64,000 nt of DNA from a virus (IMGVR_UViG_3300024272_002379); one strand, 5' to 3'. Counted from the first letter of the stretch, positions 54,829 through 54,888 are shown. Program-made: numbers and translations. Notes: generated by a model from the letters alone, not told the origin.

Positions 54829-54888
54829 GTCATAATTAAGACCATCCTTTTGTAAAAAGATTTTTATACGGGTCTCATCAACCCGTAT

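Follow-up and report, generated by a model that had tools for sequence, protein, structure and literature searches.

What is the reverse complement of a translation start site doing in the leader of a phage tRNA-Pro? The question arises at nucleotides 54829-54888 of the window, the 64,000-nt stretch of viral DNA analysed here, for which the original prediction proposed a kissing-loop antisense RNA directed against early-region leaders. This leader, E2, turned out to have a paralogous counterpart, E1, at the 3' end of the operon of the phage RNA polymerase (RNAP), beyond the element originally described. Both elements can be followed through related genomes, together with the start sites that they match.

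Genomic setting

The window is part of one 213,152-bp contig (34% G+C) that looks like a large phage genome, and its DNA is present in faecal and gut metagenomes (13 sequencing runs listed, none recorded as RNA). A block of plus-strand genes extends over approximately 36.4-121 kb (window coordinates), with minus-strand blocks on either side. The RNAP gene (42916-46650) encodes 1244 aa with the domains PF05183 (two-barrel RdRP/YonO-type) and Rho_N, and is followed by a terminator-like hairpin at 46659-46694. Two neighbouring genes, encoding proteins of 410 and 142 aa, received no function from Pfam or PHROGs; the label "early" for the target genes follows from their position. The 410-aa ORF contains a 32-nt unit twice (40280-40311 and 40331-40362, 51 nt apart), each copy of which reads as a strong SD (AAGGAGG) with an in-frame ATG, representing either a protein repeat or paired internal translation starts.

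The genome also encodes a tmRNA, ten tRNAs, and a ROOL RNA. The tmRNA (53640-54015) carries the tag ANRPMLAAA, quite unlike the tags found in relatives, and begins approximately 117 nt downstream of the promoter at 53495-53523. The full-length ROOL RNA (57117-57810; Rfam RF03087, 231 bits, E 1.4e-51) sits within the tRNA array, with tRNA-Met on one side and tRNA-Tyr on the other.

The tRNA-Pro leader

E2 consists of an open seed and a hairpin that ends against the tRNA, and has no terminator. The relevant features are as follows:

53495-53523, plus strand: sigma-70-type promoter (TTGACA, 17 nt, TATAAT; 12 of 12 consensus matches), upstream of the tmRNA
54829-54852, plus strand: E2 seed, pairing with the start codon and SD of the 410-aa gene (12 + 8 nt, with a 2-nt bulge)
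54866-54888, plus strand: E2 kissing hairpin, an 8-bp stem (ATACGGGT/ACCCGTAT) with the loop CTCATCA at 54874-54880, adjoining tRNA-Pro
54889-54964, plus strand: tRNA-Pro(TGG), called by ARAGORN and scoring 67.8 bits with Rfam

The promoter probably drives the tmRNA, the C39 peptidase gene, E2, and the tRNA array as what would be one co-transcribed unit, and E2 lies approximately 12 kb from the RNAP start, in a separate unit behind its own consensus promoter. Nucleotides 54829-54850, GTCATAAT-TA-AGACCATCCTTT, can pair antiparallel with 40010-40029 apart from a bulge of 2 nt. The match to the initiation region of the 410-aa gene (SD and start codon), the CTCATCA-loop hairpin abutting the tRNA at 54889, and the minus-strand reading ATG-ACC-TAA of the seed are all present in the sequence as originally predicted, as are the TGATGAG-type hairpins before the SDs of the 410-aa and RNAP genes (39993-40007 and 42861-42884). 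The seed also pairs with the start codon and SD of the RNAP gene, as two blocks. The box GTCATAAT could instead be conserved as a -10-like element.

Shortly 3' of tRNA-Pro, 54973-54983 is complementary over 11 nt to the SD and start (59433-59443) of the gene at 59443, a match of chance-level length in this genome. The other tRNA leaders considered as anti-start-site RNAs (55113-55145, 55253-55285, and 54973-54983) were not adopted as such, their exact matches being at chance level.

Target start sites

Three neighbouring gene starts are candidate targets:

39993-40029, plus strand: leader hairpin (GTGC-ATGATGA-GCAC, 39993-40007), SD, and start codon (40025) of the 410-aa gene, the hairpin lying 2 nt 5' of the SD
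41293-41314, plus strand: SD (AAGAAAGGATGGT) and start of the 142-aa gene, the third candidate target, which has no kissing hairpin
42861-42884, plus strand: RNAP leader hairpin, AAGACAG-AAGTGATGAG-CTGTCTT, with the loop TGATGAG at 42871-42877
42896-42923, plus strand: SD (AAAGGTTGGT, 42898-42909) and start (42916) of RNAP, which E2 pairs with in two blocks

When the 24-nt E2 seed was scanned against the whole genome (both strands, non-self), the 410-aa start site ranked first (-29.0 kcal/mol), the RNAP start site second (-22.9), a site without a gene start third (-22.8), and the 142-aa start site fourth (-22.0). Among 130 natural 24-mers drawn at random from the genome, just one reached the leading energy (mean best -21.4, sd 3.0). 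The SDs of the targets are of an unusual "split" kind (AAAGGA-T-GGT, AAAGG-TT-GGT), which fits the seeds better than a canonical anti-SD would; AAAGGA-T-GGT occurs in the 213 kb only at 40010 and 41296, and AAAGGATGGT is confined to two target SDs.

The RNAP leader loop region (42868-42877) contains TGA-TGA, the first TGA being the stop codon of a 112-aa ORF (42535-42873). A loop TGA serves as the stop of an upstream ORF of approximately 110 aa in four genomes (the window, L004, L005, and L008), and the conservation of TGATGA may thus arise partly from this coding role. Ribosomes terminating there would melt the RNAP leader hairpin, which may be either a part of the mechanism or a confounder, and termination within the target loop could couple upstream translation to the accessibility of the kissing loop.

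Two structural readings of these leaders were discarded: a K-turn or K-loop interpretation of the GUGAUGA loop, rejected by inspection because it lacks a partner CUGA box, and a hammerhead-core interpretation of the TGATGA motif, since the 410-aa leader hairpin does not have hammerhead topology. Separately, a hammerhead-like core lies approximately 25-90 nt 5' of the 410-aa leader hairpin in L001, L002, L005, and L006. Self-cleaving ribozymes also occur in the early region of relatives, comprising pistol (L001 2712-2771 and L006 2950-3013), twister-P5 (L006 3347-3421), and a hammerhead III-like match below gathering (L002 6785-6842, 24.9 bits); an Rfam search of window positions 36000-64000 found no self-cleaving ribozymes.

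A paralogous element at the end of the RNAP operon

E1 (47804-47910) lies in the interval from the DUF488/YAcAr stop codon to the following gene, and comprises four parts:

47804-47821, plus strand: E1 5' hairpin of the C-TANC-G type, 7 bp with a TAGC loop that includes the TAG stop of the DUF488/YAcAr gene
47835-47852, plus strand: E1 seed with the core ACCATCCTTTCTT, single-stranded in the predicted fold
47858-47874, plus strand: E1 kissing hairpin, AGGGA-CTCATCA-TCCCT
47878-47910, plus strand: E1 intrinsic terminator, a 9-bp GC-rich stem with a T run, specific to the plus strand

The predicted fold of E1 (-37.3 kcal/mol, z = -5.8) shows three hairpins with the seed open between them, a layout of 5' hairpin, accessible seed, and terminator typical of a small RNA derived from a 3'UTR. 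The 5' hairpin is kept in relatives with compensatory changes. A promoter search gave no separate promoter for E1. Its seed is complementary to the SDs of the 142-aa gene (13 nt) and the 410-aa gene (12 nt), which are its best start-site targets in this genome; its best energy here (-20.5 kcal/mol) falls inside the chance range, and the RNAP start site lies outside its top 14 targets.

Other conserved signals surround E1. A motif of approximately 15 nt at 47923-47937 (TTCGACGTGGCTTTT-like, some relatives having CTGAA) is found in all relatives in the interval from the E1 terminator to the SD of the next gene (L001 ~14478-14495, L002 ~15295-15312, L007 ~16355-16372, L008 ~15920-15937, and L010 ~16005-16022); it may be a promoter used by the phage polymerase, or else some other signal specific to the phage. 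In addition, tetraloop hairpins of the form CC-TA[ACGT]C-GG, with covarying stems, are dispersed at gene ends and between tRNAs (47804-47821, 49382-49399, 50633-50650, 52506-52523, and 55153-55170; L007 23640-23660). The TAA or TAG in their loops often doubles as the stop of the preceding gene, and the hairpins could be processing sites, stabilisers, or phage polymerase signals.

The arrangement compared with chance

A match of this length is in itself unremarkable, as 2.9 kb of spacers yield 222 complementary matches of at least 11 nt, which places the 12-mer alone at chance level. The whole arrangement of E1, E2, and leaders is beyond chance, although the 12-nt match alone is not. On the plus strand of the 213 kb, ACCATCCTTT occurs three times; two of the three copies are intergenic, and both have a hairpin with a CTCATCA loop within 25 nt downstream. 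Intergenic plus-strand hairpins with a TCATCA loop are limited in the 213 kb to E1 and E2. Neither element matched an Rfam family at E values up to 1, Rfam matches being otherwise tRNAs, the tmRNA, ROOL, and weak chance hits.

Conservation and covariation in relatives

Searching with the RNAP protein gave 77 homologues (35-100% identity), many of them on contigs of approximately 210 kb, and retrieval of the encoding contigs yielded eleven syntenic loci and more from two contig collections; single-protein searches of the viral contig collection found no close relatives. The four element types are present in syntenic positions in ten relatives, L001-L010, whose RNAPs are 48-79% identical. In all 11 genomes including the window, the RNAP leader hairpin, with the loop [A/C]-[G/A]-TGATGA-[A/C/G], stands 5' of the SD, and E1 follows the last gene of the RNAP unit, lying directly 3' of the RNAP gene in L003. 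A TGATGA-loop hairpin occurs 2 nt 5' of the SD of the 410-aa homologue in five genomes (the window, L001, L002, L004, and L005). E2 precedes the first tRNA of the array in eight genomes, 3' of the C39 peptidase stop in genomes that have this gene, and its hairpin ends 0-5 nt before the tRNA in the window, L001, L002, L004, L005, L006, and L008, but not in L009; L001 has a deviant E2 loop (CTATCG).

The stems of these hairpins covary. Because MAFFT with RNAalifold on whole E1 misaligned the short and variable kissing stems, a loop-centred alignment was used for that element. In the RNAP leader (11 genomes), all eight pairs show changes on both sides and 89% of cells are paired; its covariation score (0.691 vs 0.302 shuffled) was reached in none of 500 shuffles, and sliding the partner by one column lowered pairing to 45-51%. 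Both-side changes affect four of six pairs in the E2 stem (eight genomes; 95.6% of cells paired; 0 of 500 shuffles) and all five in the E1 kissing stem, where 100% of cells are paired and the score was 1.243 vs 0.279 shuffled (0 of 500 shuffles). The E1 test covers the eight genomes with 7-nt loops, L005, L006, and L008 with longer loops being omitted.

No change affects the 6-nt loop cores TGATGA and TCATCA in the aligned hairpins, so that the core itself gives no covariation signal. Complementarity between the loops spans 6-8 nt per genome; the seventh position is often unpaired against the RNAP leader, and the 6-nt core alone is universal. Since the stems covary while the loop cores are invariant, these appear to be folded RNAs selected for complementary loops, and the covariation in related phages that the original prediction had named as a check was indeed found.

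The partner motifs appear and disappear together among relatives. L011 (39% RNAP identity) and a clade of 49% identity (L015, L016, L021, L022, and L026) have neither the TGATGA leader loop nor the TCATCA loops; L020 (60% RNAP identity) has both kinds. The tRNA-Pro leaders of the 49%-identity clade carry anti-SD-like tracts (L021 20520-20584, L026 20660-20733, and L016 20230-20297), such as CTATCCTTTC, or CCATCCTCT in a hairpin loop, without a TCATCA loop; they may represent a diverged version of the system.

Strand of the elements

In all 11 genomes, a stem and T run on the plus strand follow E1, and a plus-strand tRNA follows E2 within 0-5 nt in seven. Stems contain 17 G-U against 3 A-C pairs, a count biased by the fact that G-U was allowed in the stem definition. 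Open frames on the minus strand at the two elements span 2 and 10 codons. Terminators, tRNAs, and G-U pairs together assign every element to the plus strand, and a minus-strand transcript is, judged from the sequence, an unlikely source of the motif.

The same evidence bears on a DNA-level explanation, in which the motif would be a duplex bound by protein (an operator, a promoter part, or a recombination site) or a set of minus-strand leaders. Such an element would account for the occurrence of the motif in both orientations and for the SD and ATG on the minus strand of 54829-54850. However, the two half-motifs stand anywhere from 2 to 15 nt apart and no two sites share a stem, unlike what a protein operator would show, and stem covariation and the G-U bias point to a folded plus-strand RNA. 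The minus-strand frames have only 2 and 10 codons, and the terminator after E1 and the tRNA after E2 both lie on the plus strand. The explanation is thus highly improbable.

Co-evolution of seeds and targets

The seed of every genome was paired with the RNAP start region of every genome, and cognate combinations were compared with 20000 permutations. Had seeds and targets arisen by an old inverted duplication and then drifted independently, no advantage of cognate over non-cognate pairs would be expected. For E2 and the RNAP start (eight genomes), the energies of cognate pairs totalled -180.2 kcal/mol, permuted sets averaging -149.8 (sd 9.2), and only 3 of 20000 permutations gave a total as good; for E1 and the RNAP start, 21 of 20000 were as good. 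With the 410-aa gene as partner (n = 5 in each case), the count was 507 of 20000 for E1, and E2 gave no significant cognate preference (5432 of 20000). The proposal that the tRNA-Pro leader is antisense to early-region leaders is therefore supported for RNAP, where pairing is conserved in 10 relatives; with the 410-aa gene, E2 pairs strongly in this genome but shows no cognate specificity across genomes. Comparative sequence evidence singles out the RNAP start region as the conserved partner.

The E2 duplex with RNAP always consists of two blocks, at the start codon and the SD, and at each locus the RNAP start region is among the best 0.4-12% of locus windows for the E2 seed; Fisher combination of these ranks gives 9e-8, in which independence is overstated because the genomes are related. 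Individual compensations are visible as well. In L003, the seed ATCATCCTTT is accompanied by the SDs AAAGGATGAT at both targets, where the window has ACCATCCTTT and AAAGGATGGT. The L005 E2 seed AATCCTTTCT goes with AGAAAGGATT and the start codon, and in L004 the E1 loop TTCATCA is matched by a leader loop ending in TGATGAA. In L007, the E1 seed has ceased to be anti-SD-like and instead complements the start codon region of that genome's RNAP gene through 12 uninterrupted pairs, some of them non-Watson-Crick. The E1 seeds of L009 and L010 are likewise not anti-SD-like, yet match their own RNAP start region.

These results weigh on an explanation confined to local roles, according to which E1 and E2 would act only as 3' stabilisers, tRNA-array processing signals, or terminator context, the complementarity being a by-product of SD-likeness and an old inverted duplication, without regulatory pairing. 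The chance-level frequency of 11-12-nt matches and the ordinary energy of the E1 seed agree with it; conserved intergenic hairpins are abundant in this phage group, and SDs pair with any anti-SD-like tract. It nevertheless leaves unexplained the invariant, complementary 6-nt loop cores amid changing stems and the joint disappearance of both motifs in distant clades, and the seeds track their own RNAP start, including the switch from SD to start codon in L007. We therefore regard purely local roles as unlikely.

Likeness to the anti-SD tail

Apart from one inserted A, the seed CACCATCCTTTCT equals the 3' tail of Firmicute 16S rRNA. As the seeds are close to the anti-SD tail, some pairing with any SD is to be expected; part of the seed-target complementarity is anti-SD likeness alone, accompanied by moderate pairing with many SDs. 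One reading of this likeness is a general anti-SD mimic or sponge, whose seed would compete with ribosomes for many host or phage SDs instead of serving three particular genes. The tracts before tRNA-Pro in the 49%-identity clade, anti-SD-like and without kissing loops, would suit such a sponge, as does the seed itself. It is very unlikely all the same, because matching kissing loops are confined to two leaders per genome, the target SDs carry an unusual complementary insertion (AAAGGA-T-GGT, only at 40010 and 41296), and the E1 seeds of L007, L009, and L010 match their own RNAP start despite lacking any anti-SD likeness.

A more specific reading, which we hold to be quite unlikely, is a private, orthogonal SD/anti-SD code, in which E1 and E2 would imitate, as RNA, those parts of the 30S initiation complex that read the mRNA. 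The seed would represent a tail resembling the 16S 3' end with one inserted A, and the hairpin, with its G-C-rich stem and CUCAUCA loop, would come near the anticodon loop of the initiator tRNA, which is CUCAUAA. Such mimics would outcompete ribosomes only on the split SDs (AAAGGA-N-GGT) of the polymerase and its neighbours, and the amount of mimic RNA relative to ribosomes would then determine how strongly these genes are translated.

A proposed antisense mechanism

E1 and E2 would, on balance, probably act as trans-acting antisense RNAs, one derived from a 3'UTR and the other from a tRNA leader, which nucleate by kissing and block translation start sites. E1 would be released from the 3'UTR of the RNAP operon, between its 5' hairpin and the intrinsic terminator, and since this is the operon's own 3'UTR, it would exert feedback on the RNAP operon. 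E2, for its part, would be released from the 5' side of pre-tRNA-Pro by RNase P cleavage at 54888/54889 and keep a protective hairpin at its 3' end. In both RNAs the seed, predicted to be single-stranded, is complementary to the SD/start region of the RNAP, 410-aa, and 142-aa genes. The CUCAUCA loop would kiss the loop of the target hairpin 5' of the SD through 6-8 bp as the nucleating contact, and pairing would then extend antiparallel, in unchanged register, over the SD and AUG. The order of parts permits this: because targets run hairpin-spacer-SD-AUG and E1/E2 run (anti-AUG)-anti-SD-spacer-hairpin, loop meets loop and seed meets SD. The 30S subunit would be excluded, and translation of the RNAP mRNA, and possibly its stability, would be lowered. 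The data establish the sequences, the structures with their conservation and covariation, and the strand; we infer transcription, processing to free RNAs, kissing in vivo, and repression as the outcome. Most likely, E1 and E2 are RNA regulators through which the phage keeps production of its own polymerase in check.

The main alternative to repression in trans is folding back in cis, whereby an unreleased E1, as the 3'UTR of the shared polycistronic mRNA, would pair over long range with the RNAP start (and that of the 410-aa or 142-aa gene) approximately 5-8 kb upstream and close these sites upon completion of the transcript; E2 would have the same role only if co-transcribed, and would otherwise be a separate trans copy. 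The constant position of E1 at the 3' end of the RNAP transcription unit (directly after RNAP in L003) and the failure to find a separate E1 promoter fit this scheme, and complementarity and covariation accommodate cis as well as trans pairing. Against it, E2 has the same seed and loop in another unit with its own promoter approximately 12 kb away, a terminator-like hairpin (46659-46694) follows the RNAP gene, and the E1 layout of 5' hairpin, open seed, and terminator is that of a stable small RNA. Folding in cis is accordingly rather unlikely, and repression in trans is the reading carried into the comparison with known systems.

Significance and relation to known systems

The feature is real and conserved. 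Neither Rfam nor the literature searched revealed an RNA controlling a phage RNA polymerase, and no description of the E1/E2 system was found in the literature; to our knowledge, few phage-encoded trans-acting RNAs regulating the phage's own genes have been reported. The findings outline a conserved RNA circuit in uncultured gut phages of approximately 210 kb with a YonO-type two-barrel polymerase. Its two regulators are paralogues, the first linked with the end of the polymerase operon and the second with tRNA-array processing, and each is directed at the polymerase start through a kissing-loop handle. If correct, it would offer a directly testable model for the timing or limitation of polymerase synthesis in such phages, a natural case of a tRNA 5' leader with a function, and a small orthogonal module, composed of loop and seed, with which translation could be controlled by RNA. 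A real system of this kind would also mean that the spacers of phage tRNA arrays can hold regulatory information.

The closest parallels in principle are the kissing-loop antisense systems CopA/CopT (plasmid R1), RNAI/RNAII (ColE1), and Sok/hok. As in the CopA/CopT type, both partners have complementary 6-8-nt hairpin loops, and pairing would spread from the loops to the ribosome-binding site. The regulator loops begin with CUCA or UUCA, a YUNR-type motif, in all standard-loop genomes, a likeness of sequence only and not of structure; YUNR-type motifs are known from antisense recognition loops, where work by Franch and colleagues in 1999 reportedly described the YUNR U-turn. In contrast, CopA/CopT-type RNAs are cis-encoded on the opposite strand and fully complementary, whereas E1 and E2 lie on the same strand, 5-15 kb away, and are partly complementary, with two paralogous copies and up to three targets. 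Being trans-encoded and only partly complementary, they fall outside the cis-antisense class.

The C4 RNA of phages P1 and P7 is similar as a phage antisense RNA that masks a ribosome-binding site and involves RNase P; its precursor is said, in work by Hartmann and colleagues of 1995 (cited in PMC4919922), to be an RNase P substrate. The two differ in that C4 controls an antirepressor in lysogeny, whereas the target of E1 and E2 is a phage RNA polymerase, and in that RNase P makes the mature 5' end of C4 but would make the 3' end of the E2 leader fragment. No match to the C4 covariance model of Rfam was found on E1 or E2 (E up to 1).

Bacterial small RNAs from 3'UTRs and tRNA spacers, such as CpxQ, SroC, and 3'ETS-leuZ, provide a further comparison. 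E1 resembles the 3'UTR-derived type in sharing the terminator of its mRNA, and E2 would be a pre-tRNA processing by-product with a function. Unlike these RNAs, E1 and E2 are encoded by a phage and directed at genes of that phage; E2 stems from a 5' leader, not a 3' spacer, and combines a linear seed with a kissing hairpin. 3'ETS-leuZ, moreover, is a sponge and not a translational repressor. The tRNA cluster of phage T4 includes the stable RNA species 1 and 2 (RNAs C and D), which are likewise non-tRNA RNAs made and processed with a phage tRNA array. We know of no target for them, whereas E1 and E2 have a specific, covarying one.

Measured against these classes, E1 and E2 share with trans-encoded base-pairing small RNAs a conserved seed for a start region, to which E1 adds a terminator and an accessible seed. 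With kissing-loop systems they share complementary loops and the YUNR sequence, but not full complementarity on the opposite strand. E2 is further placed like a tRNA-precursor-derived RNA, being directly bounded by a tRNA processing site in seven genomes.
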